From positions 3,221 through 67,220 of the forward strand of contig CAVQJD010000007.1 in the NCBI GenBank assembly GCA_963712695.1: DNA of 64,000 nucleotides, given 5' to 3'. Shown in pieces: positions 1 through 63,354 of this stretch. Origin of the DNA: an uncultured Gammaproteobacteria bacterium. Its GTDB lineage: Bacteria; Pseudomonadota; Gammaproteobacteria; UBA9214. Made by a program: the position numbers and the translations under genes. Position 1 is the stretch's first letter. Every line of letters begins with the position of its first letter. The notes beneath the pieces are model-generated. The model worked only from the letters and a program-made list of their open reading frames with translations. It was not told the origin of the DNA and made no database searches.

Positions 1-2680
1 GACGGCGGCACATTTTCCACTGCATCGCCTGACGGATCAGCATGTGACGGGCGACCCGGCAGTTAACCCGGGTAACGTGGTCAGGGATACCAATGATGTG
101 GTGTCTTCACAGGGCGTGGTGCTGACCCAGTTCGTGGATATCGTCCCCGGCAGTCCGGTGGATCTCGGTTCGGTCATCCCGGACCCGGCATTTACCAGAG
201 CAGATAATATCCAGGTTCGCCGAGTGGAGCCGCGCAACACGCCCACGGTGATCAATGCCGTGTTCAATTTCGACAACTTCTGGGACGGTCGCGCCAATAA
301 TATTTTCAACGGCAATAACCCGTTTGGCCCGGCGGACGACCGCCAGCACCTGATTAGCAACAGCACCGGAAGCCTGGCTACAGAGGTGCTGCGCCTGCGC
401 CAATCCTCGCTGGCTTCGCAGGCGGTTGGACCACCCCTGAGTGATTTCGAGATGTCCTATCGTGGACGCACCTGGCCCAAGATCGGCAAGAAGATGCTCA
501 GCCTGAGACCGTTGGCTCAGCAACAGGTTTCAGACTCAGATAGTAAACTGGGGTTCCTGTCACAAGGCGCGCCCGGTGGAACCGGTCTCAACACGACCTA
601 TGCCACCATGATCAAGGCCGCCTTCCCGGCGAAGTACTGGAACAACACCACCGAGAAGGTTACCTTTGACGCCAATGGCATACCCAGCTTCGAGCCGTGG
701 GACGGTGTGACGCCGCTGACTACGGATGAGTACACCCAGATGGAAGCCAACTTCGCCTTCTTCTTCGGCGTGGCGGTGCAGATGTACGAGACAACCCTGG
801 TAGCTAATGACTCCAAATTCGACCAGTTTATGGATGGCAGTGGCGCCCTGAGCAACGAGGAACAGCTCGGCATGGCCGACTTTAACGGGGCTGCTGGCTG
901 CATCCTCTGCCATGACGGCGGTACATTGAGTGATATTGATGTGACCTTATTACAGGGCAGAGACCCGGTCAGCGGTCTTCCAATCCCGTTCGACCAGAAC
1001 CCGATCGCGGCGAACGAATTCATGCAGATCGCGACCGGGCTCGGCTTGTATGACACCGGCTTTCACAATACCGGCGTACGCCCGCAGGGCAACCCGGATC
1101 CACTGGCACCCGACTTTCTGGCTGTCAACGAAGACGTCGGTCGTGGCGCTACCACCGGCCTGGGCGGTGCCATGACGGAAGTCTCCCTGTCCAAGGGCAT
1201 CCTGGGTCTGCAGAACGAGTTTCCAGGTACATCACTGTTGCAAATGCCCGGCCTGGATCCGCTGCCTGCCCATATGGCACCCTGGGTTCCACCACTGCCG
1301 GACGGCTTCCTGCCAACTGACACCTTAGGGCCCCCTCCTGCCTTTACCGGGCGGGTGACCAATTTCGGCGCCTTCAAGACCTCCGCCATACGTAACATCG
1401 CACTCACCGGGCCTTACATGCACAACGGTGGCCTGTCGACCTTGCGCCAGGTCGTGGACTTCTATGTGCGTGGCGGTGATTTTGCCAGCACCAACAACAT
1501 GAATTTTGATTCCGAGGGTGTGACCGTCCTCCCGCTGTTAAGGGACTCGGCGTGCTATTCGGGCCTGCCAACTCCTGAGCAGCGGAGAGACAATCTGGTG
1601 CAGTTCATGATGGCGCTGACCGATCAACGTGTGGCTCAAGAAGCGGCGCCGTTTGACCACCCCGAGCTGTTCATACCCGTTACGGGTACTGCGCCGGTCT
1701 CTCCCGGTACCCGCGACGCACTGTTTAACGACACAACGAATTTCCAGCAAGTACCTGCCGTGGGTTCAGGTGGTCGTGGATCGGTGGGTCTGCCGCCACT
1801 GGGCACCTTCCTTGGCCTGAATCCGCGAAGCGATGGTCTTGTGGCTGACCCAGATCTGGATTTAATCGAAGACGCTGCAGACAACTGTCCGCTGGACGCC
1901 AACCCGCTACAGGAAGATGGCGACAGTGATGGCACCGGAGATGTCTGTGACGTCTGCCTCGTCGATCCCGATAACGACATTGACATAGACGGTGTCTGCG
2001 GCGATGTCGACAACTGCCCGCTGATCGCCAACGCCGATCAGCTTGACGAGGACAGTGACGGCTTCGGTGATGCCTGTGACGACGACGATGACAACGACGG
2101 CGTGCCGGATCTGACCGACATCGATTCACTCGATCCATTGAGCTGCACGGATAGCGACGCGGATACCTGCGATGACTGCTCTGTCGGTGTCGATCAATTC
2201 GGACCACTTGCGGACAATGACCCGGCCAATGACGGCCTCGATACAGACGCCGATGGTCTATGCGACGCCGGAGATCCCGACGACGACAATGACAGTGTGC
2301 CGGATACTGGCGACAACTGCCCGGCTACGCCGACTGGCGAAGCGGTTGATACCAACGGTTGTGCGCTGTCGCAGCTGGATACGGATGTTGATGGTGTGAC
2401 CGATGACGTCGACAACTGCACACTGGTTGCCAACGCTGACCAGCGCGATACCGATGGAGATAATTATGGCAACATGTGCGATGCGGACTTAAATGGCGAC
2501 CTCACGGTGAACCTCGACGACTATAGCGTATTCAGGAGCAGATACCGTACGAACGATCCTGATGCGGATTTCAATGGAGATGGCACGGTGAATCTCGACG
2601 ACTATTCAATCTTCAGATCGTTATATCGAAAAGCACCGGGACCCTCTGCACTTGCCCCCTTAGTGGTGACGGGCGAGTGA
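1..2680 (+). CDS. Di-haem cytochrome c peroxidase (CCP/MauG family) fused to C-terminal TSP3 repeats and a double dockerin-like module. The 5' end is cut by the window start.
   Basis: ORF 44..2680 is open back to position 2. It contains the CCP hallmarks RNTPTVINAVFNFDNFWDGRA, the second haem site AAGCILCH and GPYMHNGGLSTLRQVVDFY. The first haem site must lie upstream of the window. Residues ~590-800 hold more than 8 TSP3 calcium-binding repeats (DxDxDGxGDxCDxC, DNCPxxANxDQxDxD). The C-terminus holds two dockerin-type repeats, DADLNGDLTVNLDDYSVFRS and DADFNGDGTVNLDDYSIFRS. Confidence 0.75.
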   Translation, partial: TAAHFPLHRLTDQHVTGDPAVNPGNVVRDTNDVVSSQGVVLTQFVDIVPGSPVDLGSVIPDPAFTRADNIQVRRVEPRNTPTVINAVFNFDNFWDGRANNIFNGNNPFGPADDRQHLISNSTGSLATEVLRLRQSSLASQAVGPPLSDFEMSYRGRTWPKIGKKMLSLRPLAQQQVSDSDSKLGFLSQGAPGGTGLNTTYATMIKAAFPAKYWNNTTEKVTFDANGIPSFEPWDGVTPLTTDEYTQMEANFAFFFGVAVQMYETTLVANDSKFDQFMDGSGALSNEEQLGMADFNGAAGCILCHDGGTLSDIDVTLLQGRDPVSGLPIPFDQNPIAANEFMQIATGLGLYDTGFHNTGVRPQGNPDPLAPDFLAVNEDVGRGATTGLGGAMTEVSLSKGILGLQNEFPGTSLLQMPGLDPLPAHMAPWVPPLPDGFLPTDTLGPPPAFTGRVTNFGAFKTSAIRNIALTGPYMHNGGLSTLRQVVDFYVRGGDFASTNNMNFDSEGVTVLPLLRDSACYSGLPTPEQRRDNLVQFMMALTDQRVAQEAAPFDHPELFIPVTGTAPVSPGTRDALFNDTTNFQQVPAVGSGGRGSVGLPPLGTFLGLNPRSDGLVADPDLDLIEDAADNCPLDANPLQEDGDSDGTGDVCDVCLVDPDNDIDIDGVCGDVDNCPLIANADQLDEDSDGFGDACDDDDDNDGVPDLTDIDSLDPLSCTDSDADTCDDCSVGVDQFGPLADNDPANDGLDTDADGLCDAGDPDDDNDSVPDTGDNCPATPTGEAVDTNGCALSQLDTDVDGVTDDVDNCTLVANADQRDTDGDNYGNMCDADLNGDLTVNLDDYSVFRSRYRTNDPDADFNGDGTVNLDDYSIFRSLYRKAPGPSALAPLVVTGE

Positions 2681-2876
2681 GTGGAGCCGGCGTGCAGGTC
2701 AGGGAAGGCCTGCAAGCAGGGGAAGACAGGCAGGACTTGTAGTTGGCAATACGCAGCGCAATGGATTAGGGGGCTGCGAAACAAACAGGGGACGGCGTGC
2801 CGCGGCAACGCCAGACTGGCAGACAGGATCGGGGACGGGATTACCGATTGGATGAAATAACGTGGAGATTATAATA

Positions 2877-4243
2877 ATGAAACGGTTGCGAGATTACGGT
2901 TCTTATCAAGTGCTCTACTGCTCAGCCTGACACACGCCGGGCAGGCCGCCTGCCCGGGCGACGGTGCAAGACCGATGAATATCGGGCCACACAACCCGCA
3001 GACCACGTTCCCGCTGTGGGTGCAGGACTCGGAGGGACTGGGGTTGGAAATCTGCCCGGGCACCGATCAGCTCAACTGCATTTCGGTGCCGCCGTTTAAC
3101 CCGATCGACGATCCTGGTTTAAGTCAGGCTCAGTATGACCTGTCAGCGCAGATCGGCTCCGGTGACGAGGCCTTCTATGCGTCTGCCGACGCGCTCATCA
3201 CTATTCCGGCCGGAAAGGCGATCCTGGTATCGGCCGTCGAGGCAGCCTTCCTGCCCGATTTCCAGGACGGCAACCAGTTTGCCTTCACCCGCCTGCGCAT
3301 CCGCATCGACCTGCCGAACGCAGGTACCTACATCGTGAAGCACCCTTGGGGCGAGATCACCTACAACATCTCACCCGCTGAGGTAGCCAATGGCATCAAC
3401 GATTCCTTCGACATCCCGTTCCTGGCCGACCAGGTGGGCTACCAGGGTCGCCTCGGCCCGATTCTGACCTGGAGCACCTACCCCGATGACGTTCTGCTCG
3501 ACCAGTACGGAACCTCCGGCCCCCCCAGCGCACCGGATGGCATTCCTGACTACATCGGCACGCTCGTGGTTGACCATGCTGTAAAAGGCAGCCCGTGTGG
3601 CACCAACTTTTTCCGTATAGAAGGACCGAATATCGGCGGACCCAACGTCAATTCCGTCCAGACCAACCTGTTCACCGTCACCGGCAAGGTATATAACGGC
3701 GCGGCACTGCCGACACCCCTGGCCGTCGACCAGGCGACCTACAGCCGCGCCACGGTTGGAACTGTGAATGTCGGACGTGTGAATGTCTTTGCCACCGCAC
3801 CGACGATCGCGGATGTCAGCTTCACCGGAGGCGCAAACATACCGGCCGGAACACAGCTCATGGCCTCCGACGGCAGCAACCGCCATTTTGGCACGGTGGC
3901 ACTCACACCGAACGGCGATACAGTGCCGTCCAGCGTTGATGTGACCGCCAACAATAACGTAATCCCCGTCAACCTGCCGACCACGCTCACCAACATACCA
4001 CTGGTCGACCTGGTCACGGTCACCCGCGCGGAATACGACTTTGCGACCGGTGTCCTCACTATCGAGGCGCACTCGAGCGACCTGGTCGCACCACCGACGC
4101 TGTCCGCGCTCGGCCAGAACCTGACCAATGGCGTGCTGACCACGACTCTGAATCCGGGCGTTGCCCCGCCGACGGTCACCGTGACCTCGCTCGCGGGTGG
4201 TTCGGCCACGCTTCCCGTCACCATCATTCACGCTGTGCCCTGA
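2877..4243 (+). CDS. Secreted protein, short member of an unrecognised paralog family (here called family A). An apparent 1-nt frameshift sits in the signal peptide.
   Basis: The main ORF is 2975..4243. ATG 2877 with an upstream AT-rich RBS region gives MKRLR, then a different frame gives FLSSALLLSLTHAGQAACPGDG, a signal peptide that continues into ORF 2975. Shared with ORFs 4264, 20105 and 21500: C-P-x-D after the signal, FTRLRIRxDxP, GSPCGTNFFRIE, LVDLVTVTRAEYD, TLTxEAxSSD and VTVTS-AGGS. Confidence 0.6.
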
Positions 4244-4263
4244 GACAGGCTGGAGACATTACA

Positions 4264-6293: not shown

Positions 6294-9397
<3,104 letters not shown>

Positions 9398-10845: not shown

Positions 10846-10889
10846 AAGGGCAAGATATTAAGAGGCTCATTAAACGGGAACACAATAAT

Positions 10890-23794: not shown

Positions 23795-25774
23795 GTGTAC
23801 GCCAGCTCTACAAACTGCCGCCTATGGTGGCCTTTCCTCCTGCTGTTACCCTTATTCCTGGCACTGATCACCGTCGGCCGCACCGCGGAGCCAGAGCCGG
23901 TCGGAGCCCGACTACGGGCCGCCTGGTCAGACACGGCATCGTGGTCGATTTCGAGGCACTGCCGCTCGCAGGCAACGATCAGGGCCTCATGGAAGGGCAA
24001 CTGGCCGAGATCCGCTTCCGACTCACCGAGGAAGCGACCGGCGCACCGGTCCGGGGTATTACGCCCGGCGCCTGGATGGACATGGGTGAAGTCATCCAGG
24101 GCCAGTCGGGGGCCGAGCAGAAAACCTGCAAGGAAAAGATCGCGCTCTATCTCAAGGGTGTGGTCGGCATCCGCCCCATGATCGACCTCAACAGCTACTA
24201 TGTACTGATCCTCAACAAGGAACCGAGTATCTCCGTCGTTGATCCGCTGGTATCGATGGTGGGCAAGACCAGCACCCTGGCGAATATCCGTCTCGAGGCC
24301 GCGGGGGCCGACTGGGCCAGCAGCGCGGACGAAAAGCGTGTCTTCGTGAGCATGCCCAAGGCCGGCAAGGTGGCACTGCTGGATACCAGCAAGTTCAAGG
24401 TGACCGACAACATCCCGGCCGGCAGTGCACCGACCCGGGTGGCCCTGCAACCCGATGGACGCTATCTCTGGGTCGGTAACAACGCGCCAACCGCGGATGC
24501 CAGCGGGGTCACCGTTATCGACACTGGCACGCTGGAATCCCTGGCCACCTTACCCACCGGGGCCGGACATCACGAGATCGCCTTCACCGCCGACAGCCGT
24601 TATGCCTTCGTGAGCAATCGCGATGCCGGCACGGTCAGTGTCATCGACGTCCAGTCACGCACCGTGCTGAAGAACATCGAGACCGGCCCGCTGCCCATTT
24701 CGCTCGCCTATTCAGCGCTGTCCCGGGCGCTGTACGTCGCCGACGGCAAGGACGGCCACATCAGCGTGATCGACACCGAGCAGTTCAAGGTGCAAAAACG
24801 GATCGAGGCCAGTCCCGGGCTGGGACCGTTGCGTTTCGCACCGGACGGCCGCTATGCCGTGGTGGTCAACCCCAGCCAGGAAACGGTCTACGTAATCGAC
24901 GCGGCGGCCAACGAAATCGTGCACCGCATCGCCGTGACCGGGCAGCCCTACCAGGTCGTGTTCAGCCGTGCCTTTGCCTACGTGCGCCCGCTTGCCAGCC
25001 AGAGCATCTCCATGATCGACCTGAAGCAGTCTCGGGGCGGGCAAGCAGCCGATCGTGAAAAGCTTCGAGGCAGGCAGCGTAGCACCCAGCCTGGCCGGTG
25101 ACCTGTCGCTGGCCGACTCGCTGGCCGCGACCAGCAGCGAGGCAGCCATGTTCATCGTCAACCCGGGAGACAACACCACCTATGTCTACATGGAAGGCAT
25201 GAACGCACCGTCCAGCAACTACTCGGTGCGCGGTGCCAGCGCGCGCGGCGTGATGGTCGTTGATCGCAGTCTGCACGAAATCGAGCCGGGGTTGTTTTCC
25301 GCCAAGGTGAAGCTTCCCGCCCCCGGCCGCTACGATGTGGCGTTCCTGCTGGATACGCCACAGATCCTGCATTGTTTTTCGGCAGAAGCACAGCCCGATC
25401 CCCGGATTGATCATGCCACCACGCCACTGACCATCGAATACCTGCTGCAAGACCGGCGCATGCATCTCGACACCCCGGCGCCACTACGCTTCCGGCTCGT
25501 CGATCCGCATACCGGCCAGCCCATGACCGGGTTGAAGGACGTGGGCGTGCGCTACTTCCGGGTACCCGGCACTGACCGCAAGGAGATGCGTGCCAGTGAG
25601 GAAGGTGACGGCGTGTACCGGGCCGATCTGGCACTGTCGCATCCGGGTGCCTATTACGTGCACGTGGGTGTGCCCTCCGTGGGCATCGCCTACCAGGATC
25701 TGCCCTACTTCACCCTGGTCGCCGTCCAGACCGCGGCCGGTGCACAACGCACGCCACAGGAGACATCGCCATGA
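23795..25774 (+). CDS. Secreted YVTN-type beta-propeller repeat protein with two apparent frameshifts.
   Basis: ORF 23795 has the signal peptide WPFLLLLPLFLALITVG. ORF 23824-25101 has repeated about 40-aa YVTN-like blades (RYLWVGNN..., RYAFVSNRDAGTVSVID, ALYVADGKDGHISVID, RYAVVVNPSQETVYVID). The tail continues in ORF 25055-25774. Confidence 0.5.
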
Positions 25775-26739
25775 ACCTGCGCCTGACTGGCGCCCTCTGC
25801 GCCCTCGTCCTGGGATTCGGCCCGTTGCCGGGTGTACTGGCCGATGCCTTCGGCCTGGCGGCCCGGGTCAACGGCATGGAGATCTCCAGCGAAAAGCTCG
25901 AGAAGAGCTTTGAGGAATACCTGCGCGAGAACAACGTGAACGTGGGCGCCATTCGCTATCCCGATCGATACAAGGCCATGAAGCGGGAGACGCTCGACTT
26001 GCTTATCGACCAGCTACTGCTGTGGCAGGCGGCTCAGGACAGCGACATGGTAGCGACACCTGCAGAAGTCAGCGCCGCGTTCGATGACATGCGTGCCCAG
26101 TTCAAGTCGGCGGAGAACTTTCGCGACCGGCTCGCTGCCGAAGGTTACAGTGAGGACAGTTACCGGGAACACCTCAAGCAGCTGGTCTCGGCCAGCAAGT
26201 ACCTGGAGAGCCTGAGCGGCGACATCGGAGTGAGCGATACGGAAGTACACGACTTCTATACCCGGAACCCGGATAAATTCCAGGTGCCCGAAGTCGTCCG
26301 GGCGCGCCACATCCTGATCAAGCTGGATGCCTCGCACTCCGATGAGGAGCAGCGCGGCAGGCGCAAGCAGATCGAGGACATCCTGGCACAGGCACGCGCG
26401 GGTGCCGACTTCGCCCGGCTCGCCAGCGAGCATTCAGAAGATACCAGCGCCGCCCAGGGCGGTGACCTCGGCTACTTTCCGCGCGGGAGAATGGTAAAAC
26501 CGTTCGAGGACGCCGCGTTCGGTTTGCAGCCGGGCGAGCTGTCCGGGGTAGTGGAAACCCCGTTCGGCCTGCACATCATCAAGCTGGAGGAGCGTCACGC
26601 GCCAACGATACTGCCCGAAGCCGATGCCCGCGAACGGATTACCGGGTATCTCACGGCGCTGAAGCGTGAACAGGCCGTATCCACCGGCATGGAAACGCTG
26701 CGTTCCAGCGCCAAAATTGAAATACTGGTACCGTTATGA
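25771..26739 (+). CDS. Parvulin-type peptidyl-prolyl cis-trans isomerase, a SurA/PpiD/PrsA-like periplasmic chaperone.
   Basis: Signal peptide and a chaperone-like N-domain. The parvulin domain contains ARHILIK, GGDLGYFPRGRMVKPFEDAAF and GVVETPFGLHIIK. The start overlaps the upstream stop by 4 nt. Confidence 0.7.
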   Translation: MNLRLTGALCALVLGFGPLPGVLADAFGLAARVNGMEISSEKLEKSFEEYLRENNVNVGAIRYPDRYKAMKRETLDLLIDQLLLWQAAQDSDMVATPAEVSAAFDDMRAQFKSAENFRDRLAAEGYSEDSYREHLKQLVSASKYLESLSGDIGVSDTEVHDFYTRNPDKFQVPEVVRARHILIKLDASHSDEEQRGRRKQIEDILAQARAGADFARLASEHSEDTSAAQGGDLGYFPRGRMVKPFEDAAFGLQPGELSGVVETPFGLHIIKLEERHAPTILPEADARERITGYLTALKREQAVSTGMETLRSSAKIEILVPL

Positions 26740-28097
26740 AACACCCTGCCGCACGGAGCGTAACCGGATTGCCGAAGCCCTGCTTGCACCCTGCGCACCT
26801 GCCGGTCGCGCTGCTGATGCTGGTCCTGCTGGCGCCAGCGGCCGTGCAGGCGGCTGAGGAGCACCACCATCATCTGCACCCCGAGCCGGTTTCCGCCGCT
26901 GACCCGCACGCGCACCACCGGGCCATGCTCGAGCAGGCACAGCCGGGGCCTGCCACCGCCACCGATGTCACACTGCACAATGCGACGCTGCTGACCCAGA
27001 ACGGCACGCAGGTGCGGTTCGCCAGCGAGGTCATCGCTGACCGCATCGTGGTAATGGACTTCGTCTACACCACCTGTACCACCGTGTGCCCGGTGCTGTC
27101 CGCGGTCTTCGGCCAGGTGCAGGAACGTCTGGGCGACCGGCTCGGACAGGAGGTGTCGCTGGTATCAGTCAGTGTTGACCCCGTTCGCGACACACCGCCA
27201 CGACTCAAGGCCTACGCCGACCGGCACCGCGCACAGGATGGCTGGATCTGGCTCACCGGGGATAAATCGCAGGTGGACCAGGTGCTGACCGGGCTTGGTG
27301 CCTACGCGCCGCGTTTCGAGGACCATCCGGCCATGGTCCTGGTGGGCGATGGACGTTCCGGGACCTGGATCCGTTTCTTCGGCTTCCCGGGCACGGACCA
27401 GATCCTGGCTGCGGTGGATGAACTCTCGGCGGCCCGGCAGGCGTGCCGCCCAACACCTGCAGGAGTAATGCACCATGCGCACGTTTTTCAGCTTGTTTCT
27501 CACTTTCGCCCTGGCCTGGCTAGCGCCTGCCGTGTCCGCAGCACCACGCAGACGACGGGCGGCGCGGCGGCGACACCCGCTGCGCCAACCCAGGCCGACG
27601 CTGACGAGGCCTCGCGTCAGTACTTCACGGACCTGAAGCTGGTCACCCAGGACGGCAAGGATGTGCGCTTCTTCAGCGATGTCCTGCAAGACAGGATCGT
27701 GCTCATCAATTTCATCTTCACCCACTGTGAGGGTGCCTGCCCGCTGATGACCCGCAAGCTCAAATCGAGCCGTGACCTGCTCGACGCACCATTGCGTGCC
27801 AGGGTGCATTTCGTCTCCATCAGCATCGACCCGGAACGTGACACGCCGGCGGCGATGAAGGCATTTGCCACCCAACACGAACTCGCCGACGACAAGAACT
27901 GGCTGTTTCTCACCGGTGATCCGCAAAACGTGAACCAGATCGTCAGGAAGCTCGGCCAGTACACGCCGGACGTCGAGGAGCACTCGACACTGGTGCTGGC
28001 CGGCAATGTCAGGGATCACTACTGGATGAAGATCTCGCCCATGGTGCCGGCGGAGGGTATCGCGGACAAGCTGCGCCTGCTGGCACAGGAGCAGTGA
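26736..28097 (+). CDS. Tandem double SCO1/SenC copper-chaperone protein with a His-rich N-terminal segment.
   Basis: The His-rich stretch is EEHHHHLHPEPVSAADPHAHH. Two Sco-type thioredoxin-fold domains carry CTTVCP...DPVRDTP...GWIWLTG and HCEGACP...DPERDTP...NWLFLTG. It overlaps the upstream gene end, so it sits in the same operon. Confidence 0.7.
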   Translation: MKHPAARSVTGLPKPCLHPAHLPVALLMLVLLAPAAVQAAEEHHHHLHPEPVSAADPHAHHRAMLEQAQPGPATATDVTLHNATLLTQNGTQVRFASEVIADRIVVMDFVYTTCTTVCPVLSAVFGQVQERLGDRLGQEVSLVSVSVDPVRDTPPRLKAYADRHRAQDGWIWLTGDKSQVDQVLTGLGAYAPRFEDHPAMVLVGDGRSGTWIRFFGFPGTDQILAAVDELSAARQACRPTPAGVMHHAHVFQLVSHFRPGLASACRVRSTTQTTGGAAATPAAPTQADADEASRQYFTDLKLVTQDGKDVRFFSDVLQDRIVLINFIFTHCEGACPLMTRKLKSSRDLLDAPLRARVHFVSISIDPERDTPAAMKAFATQHELADDKNWLFLTGDPQNVNQIVRKLGQYTPDVEEHSTLVLAGNVRDHYWMKISPMVPAEGIADKLRLLAQEQ

Positions 28098-37762: not shown

Positions 37763-38833
37763 ATGAAACAGTTATTAATCCTCACCACCGCGCTGCTCAC
37801 CCCCCTGTGTCTGGCTGGCGAGCCTGATCTCGGCACGGATGCGGCCAAGATCAATTACAGTGTCGGCTACCAGATCGGTGGCGACTTCAAACTGCAGGGT
37901 GTCGAGATGCAACCGGACACGGTGATCCGGGGCATCCAGGACGCGCTGTCCGGCGCGCAGCCGCTCATGACAGCCGAGGAGATGAACACCACCATGGGTG
38001 AACTGGGCAAACGCATCGCGGACCAGCGCACCCGGGAAAAGCATCTCGCCAAGACCCGGATCGAGAAGGAAAACATGGACTTCCTGACGGCCAATGCCAA
38101 AAAGGAAGGCGTGGTGACCACCCCCAGCGGACTGCAGTACAAGATCATTGAACCGGGCACGGGCAGGACACCCGGGGCAACGGACACCGTCACGGTCAAT
38201 TACCGCGGCAGCCTGATCGATGGCAAGGAGTTCGACAGCTCGGCCAAGCATGGCAAACCGGCCAGTTTCCGCGTGGACGGGGTCATTGCAGGCTGGAGCG
38301 AGGCCTTGCAGATGATGCAGGAAGGCGCCAAATGGCAACTGTTCATTCCCCACCGACTCGCCTATGGCGAGAAGGGACCGTTGCGCGAGAAGACCCTCAT
38401 CTTCGATGTCGAACTGCTGTCGGTCGATACCCCCGAAATTATGGCGCCAGAGGCGGAAGCCTCCGCAACCGATGCCGCACAGAGCGAAGCGCCAGCCTCG
38501 GTTGAACCTGCGACGCCAGTCGAGCCCGTCGTCGCCACCGGCCGGGACGGACTGACCGCCGCCCGGCGCATACCCGCCATCAGACCGGCAACCGGCACGG
38601 ACTTCAGGTCCGTTGCCGGGCGGTCGATTCAGCCTGTATCCGACCCTGTGGCACAGTTCAGTCCGTCAGATATCACAAGTGAACAAAACAGTCCTTCGCA
38701 ACCTGCCATTCCGCACCTGCGCGCAGCTGTTGCCCGTGCTGTTGCTGGCCGTGCTGCTGCTGGCCGGCTGCGGACCGGACACGGCAGACCGGCCTGCCGT
38801 CGCGGAGGACACCGTAGCGACCGACCTGCTTGA
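37763..38833 (+). CDS. FKBP-type peptidyl-prolyl isomerase (second copy). The 3' end is uncertain, because the ORF tail past about 38560 looks like read-through.
   Basis: Signal peptide. FKBP domain: GLQYKIIEPGTGRTPGATDTVTVNYRGSLIDGKEFDSS...FRVDGVIAGWSEALQMMQEGAKWQLFIPHRLAYGEKG. An Ala/Pro/Glu-rich tail follows, then the sequence becomes implausible, suggesting a missed stop or indel. Confidence 0.65.
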   Translation: MKQLLILTTALLTPLCLAGEPDLGTDAAKINYSVGYQIGGDFKLQGVEMQPDTVIRGIQDALSGAQPLMTAEEMNTTMGELGKRIADQRTREKHLAKTRIEKENMDFLTANAKKEGVVTTPSGLQYKIIEPGTGRTPGATDTVTVNYRGSLIDGKEFDSSAKHGKPASFRVDGVIAGWSEALQMMQEGAKWQLFIPHRLAYGEKGPLREKTLIFDVELLSVDTPEIMAPEAEASATDAAQSEAPASVEPATPVEPVVATGRDGLTAARRIPAIRPATGTDFRSVAGRSIQPVSDPVAQFSPSDITSEQNSPSQPAIPHLRAAVARAVAGRAAAGRLRTGHGRPACRRGGHRSDRPA

Positions 38834-40108: not shown

Positions 40109-43100
40109 GTGCCGATTCGACTGATACGCTGGTCCATTGAAAACCGCCTGCTGGTCATCCTGGCCACCCTGGTGCTCACCGGCTGGGGATGGCTGTCGGT
40201 GCTGCAGACACCGCTCGATGCCATTCCGGACCTGTCCGATGTGCAGGTCATCATCCGCACCAGCTACCCGGGCCAGTCCCCGCAGGTCATCGAGGACCAG
40301 GTCACCTACCCGATCACCACCACCATGCTTTCGGTACCGGGGACACGCGTGGTGCGCGGGTATTCGTTCTTTGGCGACTCCTATGTCTATGTCATTTTCG
40401 ATGATGACACCGATCTTTACTGGGCGCGCGCGCGGGTGCTCGAGTACCTCGACCAGGCGGAGGACAGCCTGCCGCCGGGCGTGCGGCCCAAGCTGGGGCC
40501 AGACGCCACCGGTGTCGGCTGGATCTACAGCTATGCCCTGGTGGATCAGGCGCGGAAACCACGATCTGGCGCAGCTACGCAGCATGCAGGACTGGTTCCT
40601 GAAATTCGAACTCCAGGCCGTGCCGGGCGTGGCCGAGGTGGCGACGGTTGGTGGCATGGTGCGCCAGTACCAGGTGGTGGTGAATCCCGAAAAACTCAGG
40701 GCCTACGGCATTCCCCTGACCCGCGTGGCCGAAGCCATTCGCAGGGCCAATCGGGAAACGGGTGGCTCCGTGAGTCGAAATGGCGGAATCGGAATACATG
40801 GTGCGCACCCGGGGCTATATTCAGTCGCTCGAGGATATCGAACACATACCGCTCGAGCAGACCGACAAGGGTATCCCGGTGCTGTTACGGGACATCGCGC
40901 ATATACAGGTCGGTCCGGAAATGCGCCGGGTGGTGGCCGACCTGGATGGCGAAGGGGAAGTTACCGGCGGCATCGTGGTCATGCGCCATGGCGAGAATGC
41001 CCTGCAGACCATCGCCGCGGTCAAGGAAAAACTGCGGGAACTCCAGAGCGGCCTGCCGGAAGGCGTCGAGATCGTCACGACCTACGATCGCTCGGAACTG
41101 ATCCTGAGAGCGGTGGACAACCTCACTGAAAAGCTCGTCGAGGAATTCATCGTGGTCGCGCTGGTGTGCCTGGTGTTCCTGTTCCACCTGCGCTCCGCCT
41201 TTGTTGCCGTCGTCACCCTGCCACTGGGCATCCTGATCTCGTTCATCATCATGAAACAGGCGGGGATCAATGCCAATATCATGTCCCTCGGCGGTATCGC
41301 CATTGCGATCGGCGCCATGGTCGATGCTGCGATCGTCATGATCGAGAACGCCCACAAACACCTGGAAAAAGCCGGCCCGGACCTGACCGGCAAACAGCGC
41401 TGGGAGACCATCACCCGGGCCGCACAGGAGGTCGGACCGGCCCTGTTTCTATTCACTGCTCATCATCACCCTGAGTTTCGTTCCCGTGTTCACGCTGGAG
41501 GCACAGGAGGGCCGGCTGTTTGCGCCGCTCGCGTTCACCAAGACATTTGCCATGGCCGCATCGGCCGGGCTCGCGGTTACGCTGGTGCCGGTGCTGATGG
41601 GTTATTTCATTCGCGGACGCATTCCCGGAGAGTCCGTCAATCCGCTCAGCCAGTTGCTGATCTGGCTGTACCGGCCTGCACTGAAGCGGGTGCTGGACGC
41701 GCCCGGAAATGACCGTGCTGCTGTCGATTGTCGTGGTCCTGAGCCTGCTGATTCCGCTGTACGGCATCAGCGGTTTCCTGGCGCCGCTCAAGTGGCCCCT
41801 GCAACTGGTACAGCTGGCAGAACCGTCATTCGCGGCCGGTGCCATCACCGCAATCGAGGACAGTCAGGAACGACTTGCCGTGGGCTGGCAGGCATGTTCC
41901 GCGACATTCCCTGGCTGGCGAGCCTCGGACAGGGACTGGGCTCCGAATTCATGCCGGAACTGTTCGAGGGCGACCTCATGTACATGCCCACCACGCTGCC
42001 CGGCATCTCCATCGGCAAGGCGCGCGAACTGTTGCAGCAGACCGACCGGCTGATCAGCCAGACACCGGAGGTCAAGCGGGTGTTCGGCAAGATCGGCCGG
42101 GCCGATACAGCCACCGATCCCGGCTCCGCTCACCATGATCGAAACACTGATTCAGCTCAAGCCGCGGGATGCAATGGCGACCCGGCATGACGGTAGAAAA
42201 ACTGATGGCGGAACTCGATGACAGAATCAGCTTCCCGGCACTGACCGATGCCTGGGTCATGCCGATCAAGACACGTATCGATATGCTGGCAACGGGTATC
42301 AAGACGCCCGTCGGGGTGAAAATCTCCGGGCCTGACGTCTACGAAATCGAGCGCATCGGCAAACAGCTCGAGAAAATCCTGATGCAGGTGCCGGGCACCC
42401 GGTCGGCCTATTCCGAGCGCGTCGCCGGCGGACGCTACATCGAAATTATCCCGCGGCGGCTGGAGGCGGCAAGACTGGGGCTCAATGTCGATGATATCAA
42501 TGACATCGTCAGCGCGGCAGTGGGCGGCATCAATGTCACGCAAACGGTAGAGGGACGCGAACGCTACACCGTGAACCTGCGCTTTCCGAGGGAACAGCGC
42601 GACGACGTGAAAAAACTCCAGCAACTGCCCCTGGTCACGACGAGCGGCGCCCAGGTGCCCCTGTCGCAGGTCGCCGAGGTGAAGGTGGTGGATGGACCAC
42701 CGATGCTGAGAAGCGAGAATGCACGCCTCAATGGCTGGGTGTTCGTGGATATCCGCGATGTCGATCTCGGCAGTTATGTCAACCGCGCCCGCGATACTGT
42801 GCTCGAGCAGATGGACTTGCCGCCGGGCTATTCCATTGCCTGGTCAGGACAATATGAGTACATGCTGCGGGCACAACAGAAACTGCGCCAGGTGGTCCCC
42901 CTGACCCTGATCATCATCTTCGTGCTGCTCTACCTGGCACTGCGCTCTGCCGGCGAGGCCACGCTGGTCATGCTGTCTTTGCCCTTCGCGCTGGTGGGCG
43001 GTTTCTGGTTCCTGCTGTTTCTCGACTATAACCTGTCGGTCGCGGTAGCTGTCGGGTTTATCGCCCTGGCCGGTGTAGCGGCGGAATTCGGCGTGGTGAT

Positions 43101-43462
43101 GCTGGTCTATCTCGATAATGCACTCGACACGCACCGTCGCCAGGGAGGCACAGCTCAGCGACAGTGCACTGCGCGAGGCCATCATGGAAGGTGCCGTGCT
43201 CAGGGTGCGCCCCAAGGCCATGACCGTGGCGGTTATCATCGCCGGCCTGCTGCCGATCATGCTGAGTGAGGGAACCGGGTCGGAAGTGATGCAGCGCATT
43301 GCGGCGCCCATGATCGGCGGCATGGTCACCGCACCGCTGCTGTCCATGTTCGTCATTCCGGCGGTGTATTACCTGCAGCAACGACGCAGCACTGAACAAG
43401 TCCTGAACACTAGCCCGCTTCAATCCCCTGCCTGCTTCTTGCCGGTAATCAGCCCCGTGTAA
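40109..43462 (+). pseudogene. cusA: CusA/CzcA-family heavy-metal RND efflux pump. The frame is broken about 6 times, by sequence error or pseudogenisation.
   Basis: The N-terminus [49 protein letters not shown] is typical of CusA. Homology continues through ORFs 40137, 40780, 41166/41486, 42169 and 43118. The C-terminus is [27 protein letters not shown]. Confidence 0.7.
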
Positions 43463-44183
43463 TCGTCCGCGGGCTGCAGCTTTCTCGTACTCTGCCGGAA
43501 CGCGGAAGTATATCCCGGGGCACTATGTCGTGGGAAACCGACTTGAGTATGAAGGTCGGTTCGCCCTCCGCGGGACGGCTTCGAATCGTTATAAACTGCT
43601 CATCCGACTGGATGGCAATCCAGTCCGGATCGGTCCTCTGCCGGGAAAACTCGATCAGGCGGGCCATGCTGATGAGTTCACGCGGCGTCATTCCCAGGGC
43701 GTACGCATCTACCAGGCAGTGTTCGGCCAGCAGTTTGTCATCGCGCATTTCCCTGACCACCCTGCAGCTGATCCCCGCCACCGTGTTCTTTTCTGTTGTC
43801 GGTGACAAAATGTTCTTTGGCGGTGATTTTGCAGCAGCCTGCCCCGCTGCAGCAGGGGCCGGCGCAGCAGCGCTCTCCGCCTTGGGCGCTGCAGCAGGGA
43901 GCCGCGTGCCACCCTGATGATGGGGTGAATCCCCGAAGGTGGTGAAAGTCTGCTTTTCGCCGTTGACAACGTTCATGTACAGGAATCCGCCATCCAGCAG
44001 CAGGAAATTTTCCGGTGCCTCGGTGCTCTTGTCCACCCGCAAGAAGCGGCCACGAATACTGTAGGTCTGCTGGGTTGCCTGACCCGCGGCGTCGACCAGA
44101 TCGTAAACCAGGGTGGTATCGGCGTGAACGGAAAGGGACAGGAAGGCGGCGACGGCAGATACGATACTCAGGCGTGTTTTCAT
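43449..44183 (-). CDS. Hypothetical secreted or periplasmic protein.
   Basis: ORF with signal peptide [21 protein letters not shown] and an Ala/Pro-rich linker. No recognisable motif. Confidence 0.4.
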
Positions 44184-46128: not shown

Positions 46129-47302
46129 ATGCTAGACGGATTACTGGATTTATCTTTCCAGGGTTACATCGGCGCCACCCTGCTGCTAACCCATATCACC
46201 ATCGCCAGCGTCACCATTTTCCTGCATCGTCACCAGGCGCATAACGCGCTCACCCTGCACCCGTCTGTGAGTCACTTTTTTCGTGGCTGGCTGTGGCTGA
46301 CAACCGGCATGGTCACCCGGGAATGGGTGGCCGTGCATCGCAAGCATCACGCCAAATGCGAAACTGTGGACGATCCACACAGTCCCCAGGTCAGAGGCAT
46401 CCTGCAGGTCCTGTTCGGTGGCGTCGGCCTGTACAGAACTGCCGTGCGCGACCAGGAAACGCTTGATCACTACGGCAACGGCACGCCCGATGACTGGCTG
46501 GAGCGTCACGTGTACAGCCGCTCGCCACTTACGGGCATCCTGATTATGGGTGCCATCGACGTGCTGCTGTTCGGCGTGGCCGGACTGATTATTTTCACGG
46601 TGCAGATGCTGTGGATTCCGCTCTGGGCCGCCGGCGTCATCAACGGCCTGGGTCATTTCTGGGGCTATCGCAACTTCGAAACCACGGATGCCTCGCGCAA
46701 CCTGTCCCCGGTCGGCATCCTGATAGGTGGCGAAGAGCTGCACAACAATCACCATGCGTACCCGCAATCGGCCCGGCTCTCCAATAAATGGTGGGAGTTC
46801 GATATCGGCTGGCTGTACATCAGGATCCTGGCAGTGCTGGGTCTGGCGCGCGTGCGTCGCATCGCCCAAAGTACGGTTAGAGCGCGGCAAGCAGGTAGTC
46901 GACCTGGAAACACTGCGGGCTGTCCTGCGCGACCGCTACCACGTGCTCACACTCTATGGCCGCAAGGTCATCCGGCCGGTCGTACGCAATGAACGGCGTG
47001 CCAGCGACGGTGCCGGACGCAGACTGCTGCGCCAGGTACACAAGCTGATGACCCGTGAAGATATCGCGCCGGACGCAACAGCACGTGCCACCCTCAACGA
47101 CGTGCTGCAAAAAAGCCAGGCCCTTGCCACGGTGTACCGCTTCAAGTCGCAACTCAAGGCATTGTGGGCCCACACCGCCAGCGACGGTGCCGGTCGGGTC
47201 GAACGCCTGGAGGCCTGGTGCAACGAGGCCGAGCGCTCCGGCATCAAGGCGCTGCAGGACTTTGCCAATGTCCTGCGCAGCTACACACTGCAGACTGCCT
47301 GA
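46129..47302 (+). CDS. Membrane delta-9-type acyl-lipid/acyl-CoA fatty acid desaturase with a C-terminal extension. One apparent frameshift near 46875.
   Basis: Three His boxes: HRHQAH, HRKHH and HNNHH, with hydrophobic spans between them. ORF 46727-47302 continues the protein after the shift. Confidence 0.65.
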
Positions 47303-47502: not shown

Positions 47503-48888
47503 ATGTCATTTGACGATCTCGGCCTTACGGCCGAATTGCTCCGTGCTGTATCCGAACAGGGCTACACTGAACCGACCCCGATACAGCGCCAGGCCATACC
47601 GGTGATTCTCGCAGGACGCGATGTCCTGGCGGGCGCCCAGACCGGCACCGGCAAGACCGCCGGGTTCACCCTGCCGCTGTTGCAACGCCTGTCGCCAGAC
47701 GCCGTCCGCCGGCAAACACCGTCCGGTACGTGCGCTGATCGTGCTGACCCCGACGCGCGAACTCGCGGCCCAGGTCGGGGCGAGCGTGGACACCTACGGC
47801 AAATACCTGCCGCTGAAATGCGCCCAGATCTACGGCGGCGTCAGCATCAACCCGCAGATCGCGACCTTGCGCCGCGGCGTCGATATCCTGGTGGCCACAC
47901 CGGGCCGCCTGCTGGACCTGATCGGGCAGAACGTGCTGGATCTTTCCCGGGTCGAAATCCTGGTCCTCGACGAAGCCGACCGCATGCTGGATATGGGTTT
48001 CATCCGCGATATCCGCAAAATCCTCGCACTGCTGCCCAAGCAGCGCCAGAACCTGCTGTTCTCCGCCACCTTCTCCGACGAGATCAGGCAGCTGGCCGAC
48101 AGCCTGTTGCACAATCCGGCACAGATCGAGGTCGCACAACGCAATACCGCCTGCGAACTGGTCGCACAGGTCGTGCACCCGGTGGATCGCGAGCGCAAGC
48201 GCGAGTTGCTGTCGTTCCTGATCGGCTCGCAAAACTGGCGCCAGGTGCTGGTGTTCACGCGCACCAAGCACGGAGCAAACCGCCTGGCGGAACAACTGGC
48301 GCGCGATCGGCATCCAGAGCGCGGCCATTCACGGCAACAAAAGCCAGGCGGCGCGCACACGCGCACTGGCGGATTTCAAACGCGGCGCGGTGCGGGTGCT
48401 GACGGCCACCGACATCGCCGCGCGCGGCCTGGACATCGACCAGCTGCCGCACGTGGTGAACTACGAGCTGCCGCACGTACCGGAAGACTATGTGCACCGC
48501 ATCGGACGCACCGGCCGTGCCGGCAACGCCGGGCGAGGCGATCTCGCTGGTCTGCGTGGATGAGCACAAGCTGCTGCGTGATATCGAGCGCGTGGTACAG
48601 CGCAGGATTCCGCAGGTCGTCGTAAACGGCTATGCGCCGGACGCCGCGATAAAGGCCGAACCGATCTTCAAGGGACGTAATCCCGGTGCAAATACACCAC
48701 GTCGTGCGTCTAATGCCAGTGACCCGCCGCGCCGCAAGCCGCGCAGTCAGTCAGCCAGCGGCAACAGCACGAACAGCGGTAGTGCGGGACGTAATTCGAC
48801 GCAGGCCCGGCGTGGGCCGGGACAGGGCGCCGCGAGTACGCCGACGCGCCGCACAGGTAATACCCGGCCCCGACGCACGCCGGGTTGA
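47503..48888 (+). pseudogene. rhlE: DEAD-box ATP-dependent RNA helicase (RhlE-like). The frame is broken about 4 times, most likely by sequence indel errors.
   Basis: Q-motif GYTEPTPIQ, motif [19 protein letters not shown] ([14 protein letters not shown]), SAT, motif [12 protein letters not shown] and a basic RG/S-rich tail. Homology is split over ORFs 47503, 47621, a third frame near 48300-48540, and 48490. Confidence 0.7.
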
Positions 48889-51100: not shown

Positions 51101-54238
<3,138 letters not shown>

Positions 54239-54265
54239 GGACCGCTGCCTCAGTGCTGGTGTATT

Positions 54266-55503
54266 TCAAAACCCGACTTGGCGAGCTCCGACTGCAGAAA
54301 GAAGGCGCCCTGGGTAACCACCCGTACATCCGGCACGAGGCCCTCGATCACGGTGTGGGTGTCTGACGAGCGCAGCACCCTGACTTCCCTGGACTCGAAC
54401 ACATTGTCCTCGTGCTTCGACAAACACCTGCCAGTCACCATCCGGACTGCGCAGTACCGCATGTGCCGGAATGGCCAATACTGCTTCGTTCACACTCCCT
54501 TCAATGCGCACGTCAACAAACAACCCGGGATGCAGCCGGTCATCCGGATTCGGGATCTCGATACGCACACCCAGCGTCCGGGTATCTTCGTCCAGGGCAT
54601 GATGCACCTGGATCACACGCCCCTCTACCTGATGCTCGCCAATCACTATGGTCGCCCGCGCATTCACCTGTATCCGGGCGGCCTCATCCGGGGTCAGCCG
54701 TGCTTCGACCCAGAGCACGGATTCATCACTGATCTCGAACAGTACGCGCCCGGGCTCGACCAGTTCGCCCACGATGAAATCATCACGAATCACCGTGCCA
54801 TCCTGTGGCGCCAGTAACTGGAATCGCCCATCGGCGAGCTCCGCCTTACCACTTGCCAGGAGTTGCCTGATTTCGTCCTCCGTCATGCCATAGGCACTCA
54901 CCCGTGCACGCGCCTGTTCGCGTGCGATACGTGCCTCGGTATAACGCTGCTCGGAGACGACATCCCGACCGAGTTTGCTGACCCGCTGCCATTCGCGCTC
55001 GGCAACCAGCAACTCACCCTGGGCCTGCGCCATCTCGACACTGGAGAGCATGACCAGTGCCTGTCCTTTGTGAACACTGTCACCGAGTCGCGCCTGTCTG
55101 TCAAGCACCTGGGCTGCAATTCTCGGCGCCACCCTGGTCGTGGCATAGGCATTCAGTTGAATTTCGCCCGGCGCGCGGAGTTCGTTCACGAATGTCGCGT
55201 GGCTGCAGGCGCTCACCACCACGCCGGCCATTTCCTGTTGTTCCGGCGTCAGGCGGACACCATCCTCGCCGTGTCCTGCGCTGTTCAGTCCGTGCTCACC
55301 TGCATGTTTATCTTCGGCTCATGCTCATCTGCGTGTTCATGTCCATGTTCATCTTGATGCTCAAGTTCACCTGCATGCGCAGGCTCATCTACATGCTCAT
55401 GCCCAGGTGCATGCTTTACCTGTTCAGCTTGCTCGGCGTGCAGCGAGACAGGCATGGCAGTGCCAAGCAGGCCCGCGAAAAACCAGATACCTATTCTGTT
55501 CAT
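54266..55503 (-). CDS. czcB: CzcB/CusB-family RND membrane-fusion protein with a His-rich N-terminal metal-binding segment. One apparent frameshift near 55260.
   Basis: ATG at 55503 follows an AGGAGA RBS. Signal MNRIGIWFFAGLLGTAMPVSLHA is followed by HAPGHEHVDEPAHAGELEHQDEHGHEHADEHE. The MFP body lies in ORF 54266-55231. Its start overlaps the czcC stop. Confidence 0.65.
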
Positions 55504-56743
55504 TGTGTGTCTCCTGTAAGGTTCAGCCACTGGTCGGCCTGACCGGAAGCAGCCAGCCAGTCCGCCCACGCCCGCCACATCCGGCCACGTTGTTCGGTGG
55601 CGCCGACTTCGGTATCCAGCGCCTGTTTCAGTTGCACCAGATAATCCGTGGTATTGAGTTCACCGGCCTGCCATAACCGATCGAGCAGATCAGTGCGTTG
55701 ACTGAGACGGGACGCACCGGATGCCTCCCAGGTTTTCCAGGCAAGGCTTGCATTCCGATAGACCTGCGCCGCTGCGATCAGATCGGCATGCGCCTGTTGC
55801 ATGTGATTGGCTGCCTCACGTTCTGCCTGAATCAGGTCGGCATTGGCGACATCGACTTCCGCACTGAAGGTGTTGCGCACGAACAGCGGCACGGAAACGC
55901 TGAGCCCGGTCAGCGTCTCGGAATCCTCTTTCCCGACCCGGAAACCAATAGTCGGGTCCGGAGTTTGTTCACGGAGACTCAGCTGAACTGAAGCACGCCC
56001 GGCTGCAACCCGCGCCAGGGCAGCCTGCATCGAAGGCAGATCATCCAACAGGCGATCCACATCCACCTGTTGTGGATCAATGTCTGGAAGCAGTTCGTCA
56101 AATGCGGGCCAGCCGGATGCATCACTGCCGGTCAGCGCCGTCAGCACCTGCTGTGCCCGGATCAGCTGCTCGCTGGCATTTGCGCTCCTGAAGCCGGCAT
56201 CAGCAGTGGCCAGATGTGCCAGATCGAGTTCCACCTGACCGAGATCACCCGCCCGCCGGCGCTGTTCCGCAAGGTGCGCAAAACGCGTCATTAACGTGGT
56301 CTGTTTTTCACTGATACCGACAATGGCCCCGGCCGTGTGCCAGTCCGCAAGGGCCCGCAACAGATCAGTGGCCAGGCGCTGACGTTTTGAGTGTAGTTCG
56401 GCGTTTGCAGCGCCAGCTCAAAATCAGCAACGGCCGTGCGTGCACCGCGCTTGTCAGACCAGTCGATGGTCTGGCTGAGTCCCCCAGTGGTCGTATCGAT
56501 TTCGCTGTTTTCGTAATCGAATTCCAGCTCGGGATTGAACAGGGGTTGATCGGCGGCACGCAGCCGCCCGCCGGCGGCATCGACTGCTGCCTGTGCGGCC
56601 TGTATCTCCGGATTTTGCGAAAGCACTGCGTTGATCCAGCCTGATAGTGCCGGACTGGCAACGGTTGACGACTCGGCCACTGTGGCGGGTGCAATCACCA
56701 GACAGGCGGCCGCGACCACAGTAATAAGATATTGCTTGAACAT
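55500..56743 (-). CDS. czcC: Outer-membrane efflux factor (CzcC/CusC/TolC family). One apparent frameshift near 56330.
   Basis: Signal MFKQYLITVVAAACLVIAPATVA in ORF 56291-56743. The TolC-like coiled-coil body lies in ORF 55500-56360. Together with the two genes above it forms a czcCBA-like operon on the minus strand. Confidence 0.65.
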
Positions 56744-57165: not shown

Positions 57166-57461
57166 AATATTGCCATACTACGTGCTGGTACGGGATGAAC
57201 GGCACGTGTGGTTCAACCCCGGACATTTAGTCGGCAAGCTGCAATATTACCTGAAAAAAACGCCTTCTCGACGCCTCTGCCGTCGATCGCCTGGTACACG
57301 AGGCTTCTGTAACGTAATGACCACGTCTGTTGCAGTCGTGTCGCTTTGTGCCGCGGTGCTGAATCTGATCACAGATAATTCGCGAACATTGCCTCCATGT
57401 TCGGAATGAAGACTAACTAACTGCCTGTTTGTTTAATGTCAGTTGACACCCGTTTCAGGGA

Positions 57462-58723: not shown

Positions 58724-58751
58724 GCTGTCAGATACACTGGCGATTTCCAGC

Positions 58752-62246: not shown

Positions 62247-62484
62247 AAACCTAGCCGGTCATGATCCAGACGCATGCTTTGAATACCGGCAGTCGGAACA
62301 CTGCGAGCAAAATATTATTCCGGAGCAACAATCTATCGCACCTCAGGCGCAAGTTTATTACATCTTTCAATACAGTGTTACAGCCAGTGCGTCTGGCATA
62401 TCCCCTGCCAGACCTTTATACTCTTTGAAACGACTGGCCTGCCTGATATGGCCAATATAATATTTATATAAAACAATATAATAA

Positions 62485-63354
62485 ATGGCAAACCTGTTGA
62501 TTAACCTCAAACAATACTGGCGCAAGGCAGTGGCCAGTATAAACAAATCCTTCAGTGAGCAGGAAAATACCCGGCAACGCCAGGAAGCGCTCGAACGGGA
62601 GATGCTGTCTCTCGATACAGCGTATCAAACCCTGGTCGGGAAGCTGGAAGGCATGCGGGCTGAATCCGAGCGCGTCGGTTCGGAAGCATTCCGGAAAATC
62701 GCGACACTCGAGCAATCGCACCAACAAACCGAGTCCGCCAGAATCGAAGCAGCCGAAAAGCTCGCCCAACTAGAGCAACGATTGCTCGAGACAGCAAATG
62801 AGCGTCAGCTCGAACACCAGCAGGTCGCGGCACTCGAAACGGCACTGGCAGAATCGACACGCCAGCTGGAAACCAGAGCCAACCAGCTCAAGTTCCTCCA
62901 GGATTCTGCACGCGAGCAACTCCAGGCACTCAAGACCGCACTGGCCGAGACTGAAAGCCGCCTGGAAACCCGAGATAATGAAATCAGGCAACTGCAGGAT
63001 TCAGCGCATGAGCAGATCACTTCACTTGAAATCGCGCTGGCCGAAGCAGTCAGCCGCTTTGAAACCATAGAGGGCGAACTCAGGGAATTACAGGCAACGA
63101 AACAGGAACAGGCGCATCAAATTGACGCTTTCCTTGCATCCTCCAGCATCCAGCTGGCAGCGACCACTAACCAGATCATGGCGCTGGAAAAAAAGCTCGA
63201 TGTTGAACGTAAGCTCCAGCAGCACCAGGCCGAAGATACCCAGGCGCTGTTGCGCAAGCAGGAGAAGCGCTTGAGATGGGCGCTGGTGGTCGCAGTTTGC
63301 GCGCTTATCCTGGCGGCCGTGGAAGGCGCATTCTTCTTTGGGGGTACGCGCTAG
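62485..63354 (+). CDS. Coiled-coil protein with internal ~40-aa repeats and a C-terminal transmembrane anchor. It is divergent from the amidase/mamK-like operon.
   Basis: Heptad-rich sequence with three repeats of QLETR(A/D)N(Q/E)(L/I)(K/R)(F/Q)LQDSA(R/H)EQ(L/I)...L(K/E)(T/I)ALAE. It ends in WALVVAVCALILAAVEGAFFFGG. Confidence 0.5.
   Translation: MANLLINLKQYWRKAVASINKSFSEQENTRQRQEALEREMLSLDTAYQTLVGKLEGMRAESERVGSEAFRKIATLEQSHQQTESARIEAAEKLAQLEQRLLETANERQLEHQQVAALETALAESTRQLETRANQLKFLQDSAREQLQALKTALAETESRLETRDNEIRQLQDSAHEQITSLEIALAEAVSRFETIEGELRELQATKQEQAHQIDAFLASSSIQLAATTNQIMALEKKLDVERKLQQHQAEDTQALLRKQEKRLRWALVVAVCALILAAVEGAFFFGGTR

Follow-up and report, generated by a model that had tools for sequence, protein, structure and literature searches.

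The 64-kb stretch of contig CAVQJD010000007.1 examined here (hereafter the window), from an uncultured gammaproteobacterium, raises the question of why so many of its genes can be read from end to end only by changing frame: is the organism losing these genes, does it restore their frames during expression, or is the sequence itself at fault? The window has a guanine-plus-cytosine (GC) content of 55-67%, is coding mainly on the plus strand and encodes a metal-handling neighbourhood; its broken genes include a giant MnxG-like multicopper oxidase, two resistance-nodulation-division (RND) metal pumps of the CusA and CzcA types, and a DEAD-box RNA helicase. Judging from the sequence comparisons presented below, the frame breaks are almost certainly not a biological feature. 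The reading that we favour, with a probability of about 0.86, is that they arose as errors in the consensus of a draft assembly, probably a contig built from long metagenomic reads at low or uneven depth and incompletely polished, and that the genes are intact in the organism.

Events were called by base-level alignment to the closest relative, described below, and for the MCO1 gene and the czcCBA operon by frameshift-aware protein-to-DNA alignment to intact homologues. A lenient-gap alignment gave many spurious +1/-1 pairs; the events used are blastn-based, and those compensated within 12 nt were dropped. This yields approximately 64 events that change the frame, spread over 16 of the 35 genes at a mean of 1.19 per kb of coding DNA, over a span of approximately 2.9-56.4 kb. 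In a codon-usage Viterbi decoding over six frames, the coding frame switches on the same strand in many places without an intervening gap. The first-pass annotation of this DNA had listed at least ten genes in need of frameshifts, which proves correct and an under-count, and had noted that conservation continues across the breaks, as is indeed seen in Pfam coordinates and orthologue alignments that run on from frame to frame. Its per-gene counts (about 4 for the helicase, 6 for each RND pump, 12 for the giant oxidase) were of the right order, the present figures being 3 for the helicase, 10 for CusA, 7 for CzcA and 12 for the MnxG-like gene. It had placed the breaks throughout positions 44-63354; they do extend from 2.9 to 56.4 kb, but no events fall in 57-64 kb.

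The nearest relative is the 1.05-Mb contig_2405 (loci L001 and L056) of the metagenome-assembled genome (MAG) 'uncultured Gammaproteobacteria MFD02832.bin.1.93', a GTDB species representative from a Nanopore-only Flye+Medaka catalogue. It is syntenic with the window from 9.7 to 48.8 kb at 90-94% nucleotide identity, and in it CusA (1096 aa), the DEAD-box helicase (460 aa), a multicopper oxidase (MCO) of 974 aa and a desaturase (391 aa) are all called intact. At every window shift site that was aligned the relative is without interruption, and the broken genes, once repaired, are 94-98% identical to their intact orthologues. Both homology and codon usage continue past the breaks and the orthologues are intact, which is what is expected of consensus errors. 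The relative itself carries lesions of the same kind. At L001 8894 an extra T stands between A and C, an insertion outside any homopolymer, and the window is correct at the corresponding base; a second frame break lies in the MnxG-like gene of L001 at about 11032-11050. Two candidate events in the window, at 15966 and about 18093-18110, were accordingly reassigned as errors in L001 and are not counted here. With a total of about two events in 43 kb, the lesion density in L001 is approximately 20-fold below that of the window.

The CusA-type pump (40109..43414, plus strand) illustrates the pattern. It requires ten shifts (+1 at 40548, 40774, 41445, 41701, 41891, 42118, 42171, 43150 and 43389; -2 at 41897), and the Pfam ACR_tran profile is matched at positions 2-144, 147-218, 223-435, 449-527 and 632-964 over successive frames, while the intact orthologue aligns in alternating frames through residues 1-148, 147-221, 222-472, 445-671, 687-1012 and 1012-1096. 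The DEAD-box helicase (RhlE-like; 47503..48885, plus strand) lies in four pieces with three breaks (+1 at 47694, 48308 and 48528), over which the Pfam profile coordinates likewise continue.

The giant MnxG-like oxidase (about 13205-19848, plus strand; approximately 2,200 codons) carries 12 shifts, placed by DNA alignment to L001 and by a frame map against the intact L004 protein: +1 at 13465, 13476, 13926, 14376, 15625, 16938, 17069, 18199, 18412 and 18742, -1 at 14725, and -2 at 16362. In 33 other genomes, cultured Ramlibacter isolates included, the giant oxidase is a single open reading frame (ORF) of 1,640-2,300 aa. No Pfam model matches the window's giant protein; its homologues match the NCBIfam model NF041487 (MnxG) over its full length at 2300-2440 bits, under the 3100-bit equivalog cut-off, and the family matches the solved MnxG structure (PDB 9bxa) with E = 1e-65. 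These end-to-end family matches justify the label 'giant MCO' that the gene had received earlier, and on their strength the gene is placed among the manganese-oxidising multicopper oxidases of the Pseudomonas-type MnxG family. Within the gene, a 1170-aa ORF (15088-18600) alternates between protein-like stretches and out-of-frame text rich in Arg and Pro.

Genuine pseudogenisation would mean that real frameshifts are costing the organism its copper and manganese oxidases, two RND metal pumps, the helicase and other genes. The concentration of breaks in certain genes (14 in MCO1, 12 in the MnxG-like gene, 10 in CusA and 7 in CzcA, with none in genes of similar length) and the accessory metal-handling nature of several of these genes would fit such a process, but the coding sequences themselves do not. 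After frame repair, the Nei-Gojobori ratio of nonsynonymous to synonymous divergence (dN/dS) against the relative is 0.07-0.23 in broken genes (MnxG-like 0.07/0.16/0.14, CusA 0.09, helicase 0.10, desaturase 0.10, 974-aa MCO 0.23) and 0.07-0.29 in their unbroken neighbours (CusB 0.21, FKBPs 0.22 and 0.29, others 0.07-0.17), and dN is about 0.02 in CusA and CusB alike. The comparison of Ka/Ks across the breaks that the first-pass annotation had recommended thus reveals no relaxation. Nonsense substitutions are absent from the approximately 9,000 repaired codons, the sole stop (at 32007) being made by the inserted base itself. As 2.5% of random substitutions in these genes would create a stop, neutral decay with 5-10 substitutions per indel, a ratio taken from general knowledge and from intergenic alignments here, predicts 7-13 nonsense codons, and the probability of observing none is between 1e-3 and 2e-6.

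The events also show no regard for the logic of genes. They strike unrelated genes on both strands, lie at gene ends and run over gene boundaries, as where the error-dense patch of CusA continues into its opposite-strand neighbour (43389, 43481, 43512), and in one instance a pair of events (27444/27547) fuses two genes. The insertion bias and the non-repeat positions detailed below are likewise unlike real bacterial indels, and ten or more independent frameshifts in a constrained gene would need extreme recency, simultaneously in 16 genes. Taken together, dN/dS, the nonsense count, the insertion bias and the indifference to gene organization agree, and genuine pseudogenisation is therefore effectively excluded; we regard it as extremely improbable. 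The earlier conclusion that the breaks reflect sequence error and not decay is hence strongly supported by dN/dS, the lack of nonsense codons and the intact relative, whereas the homopolymer argument offered for it was wrong.

Insertions outnumber deletions by 48 to 16 (p = 8e-5), whereas bacterial mutation is known to favour deletions. In 26 of the 33 single-base insertions resolved to the base, the extra base is unlike either neighbour (run length 1); in 6 it extends a dinucleotide (run length 2), and in one it touches a run of 3. Random bases placed at random sites would be expected to fall in these run-length classes in 56%, 28% and 16% of cases; a run is thus extended in 21% of insertions versus about 44% under uniform random insertion (p about 0.005). 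None of the 35 homopolymers of at least 5 nt, and only 2 of the 224 of at least 4 nt, carries an event. The breaks had been said to cluster in homopolymer or GC-rich runs, and a check of their coincidence with homopolymers had been suggested: the breaks avoid homopolymers more than random placement would. GC-rich runs as a cause were rejected, local GC at event sites being only marginally in excess (0.664 vs 0.634). No k-mer, 4-mers included, is enriched at the event sites, and a methylation-motif cause was also rejected, since the excess of GATC (6 vs 2.4 expected) is not significant over 115 k-mers.

These properties bear on two further explanations. One is corruption after assembly, simulated or accidental, in which single bases were randomly added to or removed from stretches of the contig. 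The near-uniform composition of the inserted bases (G 12, T 8, A 7, C 6), the want of an enriched motif, and the absence of the window's proteins from a 15-billion-protein collection in an exact-protein look-up would accord with it; it is nevertheless very unlikely, as runs are extended about half as often as it predicts, the natural relative L001 has the same type of lesion, and the patchiness of the events demands an extra assumption. The other is programmed recoding, in which ribosomal frameshifting, transcriptional slippage or RNA editing would restore the frames in vivo. Its one point of support is that conservation continues past the breaks. The sites share neither a slippery nor any other common motif, do not lie in homopolymers and number up to 14 per gene, and no site is conserved in the relative, which at 90-94% identity is uninterrupted there; therefore recoding is effectively refuted, and we allow it next to no probability.

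The events are patchily distributed. They are dense at 6.9-8.9 kb (as many as 10 per kb), 13.4-18.8, 40.5-43.5, 47.7-48.5 and 51.3-56.4 kb and sparse in 23.9-38.6 kb, and none occur in 0-2.8, 3-6.9, 9.4-13.2, 18.8-23.9 and 57-64 kb. In the clean genes, paralogue cross-alignment shows no hidden compensated shifts. The view that only a few genes are broken was weakened by the alignment of the relative, which places further events at 25023, 27444/27547, 28882, 29660, 32007/32056/32486, 38529 and 43481/43512. Repeats or collapse within the window were rejected as a cause of the patches, as no repeat is longer than 313 nt at 85% identity or more. The kind of event seems to be locally correlated: the 3' half of czcA (51353-52132) has five consecutive -1-type events, and nine of the ten shifts in CusA are +1.

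One explanation of both the extra bases and the patches is that co-assembled strains are present and that the polisher keeps both alleles of a single-nucleotide polymorphism (SNP) side by side, which would yield a +1 unlike its neighbour, with the patches marking microdiversity. Microdiversity is a recognised factor in such MAGs (PMC12313526, PMC9262707). The extra base is unlike both neighbours in 79% of cases, where this model predicts about 75% and random insertion 56%; it is a synonymous alternative to its neighbour in 16 of 25 cases versus 49% expected, and dS is higher in several broken genes. However, the excess of synonymous alternatives falls short of significance (p about 0.10), and hand tallies of codon phase (25 of 33 vs 67%) and of transition partners (17 of 26 vs 56%) are near chance. 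Furthermore, the patches are unrelated to how far window and relative diverge locally, local identity being no predictor of event positions, and the five consecutive -1 events of czcA are left unaccounted for. We consider a strain mixture unlikely, if deserving of attention. A little more doubtful still is the stronger statement that the extra bases are SNP footprints and that the patches over the two MCOs, the MnxG-like gene, CusA, the czc operon and the helicase mark hot spots of microdiversity or recombination in metal-handling genes, or alternatively that a minority of the breaks are genuine.

Four observations weigh against consensus error as the explanation. First, the over-dispersion of the events is real yet moderate (variance/mean 2.5 per kb bin; gene-level simulated p = 0.001), and a gene-specific process could also yield it. 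Second, dS to the relative is about twice as high in some broken genes (0.21 in CusA vs 0.10 in CusB). Third, a metagenome scan for contigs of the same species found no independent copy, the best match being at 79% aa identity. Fourth, to our knowledge a strong insertion bias combined with homopolymer avoidance is the textbook profile of no citable platform.

If consensus error is nonetheless the correct reading, the broken genes would be intact in the living organism and under normal purifying selection. The error process would add, and less often drop, single bases at essentially arbitrary non-repeat positions, and would act in kb-scale patches regardless of gene identity, strand or gene boundaries. 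The long-read platform, and the role of low depth in producing the patches, are inferred from the catalogue to which the relatives belong and from the published depth requirements of R10.4 data. Uncorrected long reads, which had been named as the source, are plausible; the window lacks the signature of homopolymer deletions that is classic for older long-read chemistries.

The remaining broken genes show the same picture at various densities. In the secreted TSP3-family paralogue at 2877..4243 (plus strand), the ATG at 2877 opens MKRLRDYG..., and the signal-peptide core and the mature protein follow in another frame that has no upstream start; three-frame translation confirms the 1-nt shift in the signal peptide that the first-pass annotation had reported, as one -1-type shift at about 2880-2900, and comparison with paralogues shows no internal shift in the mature part. 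MCO1 (6384..9394, plus strand), a multicopper oxidase with C-terminal TSP3 repeats (Pfam Cu-oxidase_2 and TSP_3), is a second broken MCO that had not been singled out before. With 14 shifts it is the densest patch in the window (+1 at about 6915, 6937, 7010, 7149, 7255, 7361, 7585, 7918, 7976, 8241 and 8908; -1 at about 7381, 7416 and 7686), and in frameshift-aware alignment to the intact homologues P0241 (994 aa) and P0253 (94% identity after repair) it has no in-frame stops.

Further along the plus strand, a +1 at 25023 splits a gene (23824..25774) whose counterpart in the relative is one ORF of 659 aa. A false 453-aa ORF (26736..28097) arises where a +1 (27444) is followed 103 nt on by a -1 (27547); together these lead the frame past a real stop codon, an intergenic spacer and the signal peptide of the next gene; in the outgroups and in L001 this region has a stop codon and then a new start with a signal peptide. 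The second of the two fused genes encodes an SCO1-like protein with its own signal peptide. As the fusion ORF looks intact, such errors can hide in long ORFs. A 589-aa ORF of the relative corresponds to 28094..29738 (plus strand; +1 at 28882 and 29660), and a 663-aa protein to 30681..32604 (minus strand; +1 at 32007, -1 at 32056, +1 at 32486), where the base inserted at 32007 makes a TAA. The 974-aa multicopper oxidase (33763..36698, plus strand) has a net +1 at about 34383-34408 and a +1 at 36003; an FKBP-related gene (37763..38560, plus strand; 269 aa in the relative) has a +1 at 38529 near its 3' end; and the 253-aa neighbour of CusA (43423..44183, minus strand) has its +1 shifts at 43481 and 43512 in the 3' end.

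A fatty-acid desaturase with a C-terminal ISL3-transposase-like region (46129..47302, plus strand) has a -2 at 46872 and is one 391-aa gene in the relative. A free-standing insertion-sequence fragment at this position was rejected, as the Pfam 'ISL3 transposase' match is the desaturase C-terminus, within a single ORF at L056 16130-17305. On the minus strand, the CzcA-type pump (51119..54238) has +1 shifts at about 53791 and 53190 and -1 shifts at about 52132, 51902, 51882, 51682 and 51353, and when repaired is 87.5% identical to an intact 1063-aa homologue, with no stops; the membrane-fusion protein CzcB (54253..55388) has +1 shifts at about 55316 and 54415, and the outer-membrane factor CzcC (55503..56743) a -1 at about 56418.

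The gene neighbourhood around these breaks begins with a di-haem MauG/MbnH-like peroxidase with TSP3 repeats (44-2680) and includes four secreted paralogues (2877-4243, 4264-6063, 20021-21466 and 21500-23482), the two ~1,000-aa multicopper oxidases (6384-9394 and 33763-36698), an SCO1-cytochrome c protein, cusBA (38679-43414), a cold-shock/RRM/desaturase/DEAD-helicase group (45.4-48.9 kb), czcCBA (51119-56743, minus strand) and housekeeping-type genes (58.7-63.4 kb). The two ~1,000-aa MCOs, two SCO1-like proteins and the di-haem peroxidase accompany the MnxG-like gene (44-12300 and 20021-29738), and these surroundings constitute a candidate manganese/copper oxidation island in an uncultured gammaproteobacterium. 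No tRNA or Rfam matches were found in the window, and a search of a plasmid collection recovered no relative of it.

The secreted paralogues (2877-6063 and 20021-23482) have in common an N-terminal 'CP(V/G)DGA...' domain, approximately 430 aa long, that is matched by neither Pfam nor NCBIfam. A TSP3 plus dockerin-like module ('NGD..VDAFDIP.FR.AFG') recurs on several different enzymes here, all three MCOs included; further regions of this shared family are the C-termini at 9110-9394, 19534-19848 and 23174-23482 and the N-terminal part of 33763-34440. Tandem paralogues of 481 and 660 aa (19913-23598) are missing from the syntenic position in L001 (12830-12951), a 3.7-kb insertion/deletion difference in a stretch that is without frame errors. 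About 1.2 kb at 32500-33750, 5' of the 974-aa MCO, has no ORF, a GC content of about 49% and poor alignment with the relative. In the N-terminal heavy-metal-binding region of CusB, a tandem duplication of about 98 nt (38844-39083), 95% identical, corresponds to two heavy-metal-binding domain (HMBD) repeats. The ORFs at 57462-58118 and 58115-58723 have no family match, the codon model takes 56750-58730 to be mostly non-coding, and this region may be foreign DNA or mis-framed sequence.

The finding is a warning about data quality and not about biology. The contig needs frame repair before annotation; otherwise gene calls, pseudogene counts, coding density and functional inference will be wrong, and one would record copper efflux as 'lost' and the helicase as 'truncated', and list a hypothetical ORF of 1170 aa and a 453-aa fusion. 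A homopolymer check is an insufficient screen for long-read consensus errors and would have missed the problem here. Artefact and decay can be separated even without reads, by dN/dS and nonsense counts after repair and by the ratio of insertions to deletions.

Bacterial pseudogenes in decaying genomes, such as those of Mycobacterium leprae, Sodalis and Shigella, resemble the broken genes of the window in having multiple frameshifts per gene and in affecting many genes. They differ in showing nonsense substitutions, raised dN/dS, a deletion bias and slippage-type contexts, none of which the window shows. Classic homopolymer errors, as in Nanopore R9.4.1, 454 and Ion Torrent data, lie in homopolymer runs and are mostly deletions. 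They likewise introduce frameshifts that break gene calls while conservation continues, but in the window insertions exceed deletions 3:1 and no run of at least 5 nt is hit.

A third comparison is with the indels of low-coverage, Nanopore-only MAGs. The nearest relatives (L001/L056 and L137) come from the Microflora Danica long-read catalogue, which was built from Nanopore data only with Flye (--meta/--nano-hq) and one round of Medaka, and whose authors report that lower-coverage MAGs lose coding density through errors (PMC12313526). With R10.4-type data homopolymers are resolved, about 40x being needed for a near-finished consensus, and MAGs under about 40x retain residual indels that fragment genes (PMC9262707). 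As such chemistry resolves homopolymers, its residual errors need not be homopolymer-linked. Additional polishing is reported to be necessary for MAGs of low coverage. The window differs from these MAGs in its event density, which at about 1.2 per kb, and in places as many as 7-10, greatly exceeds that of the relative, and in its insertion bias and homopolymer avoidance, which are not described in PMC12313526 or PMC9262707. It agrees with them in that 1-nt indels fragment genes over which homology continues, a lesion of the kind found in L001 itself, and by this analogy the pattern of the window behaves like the residual indel error of low-coverage long-read MAGs.

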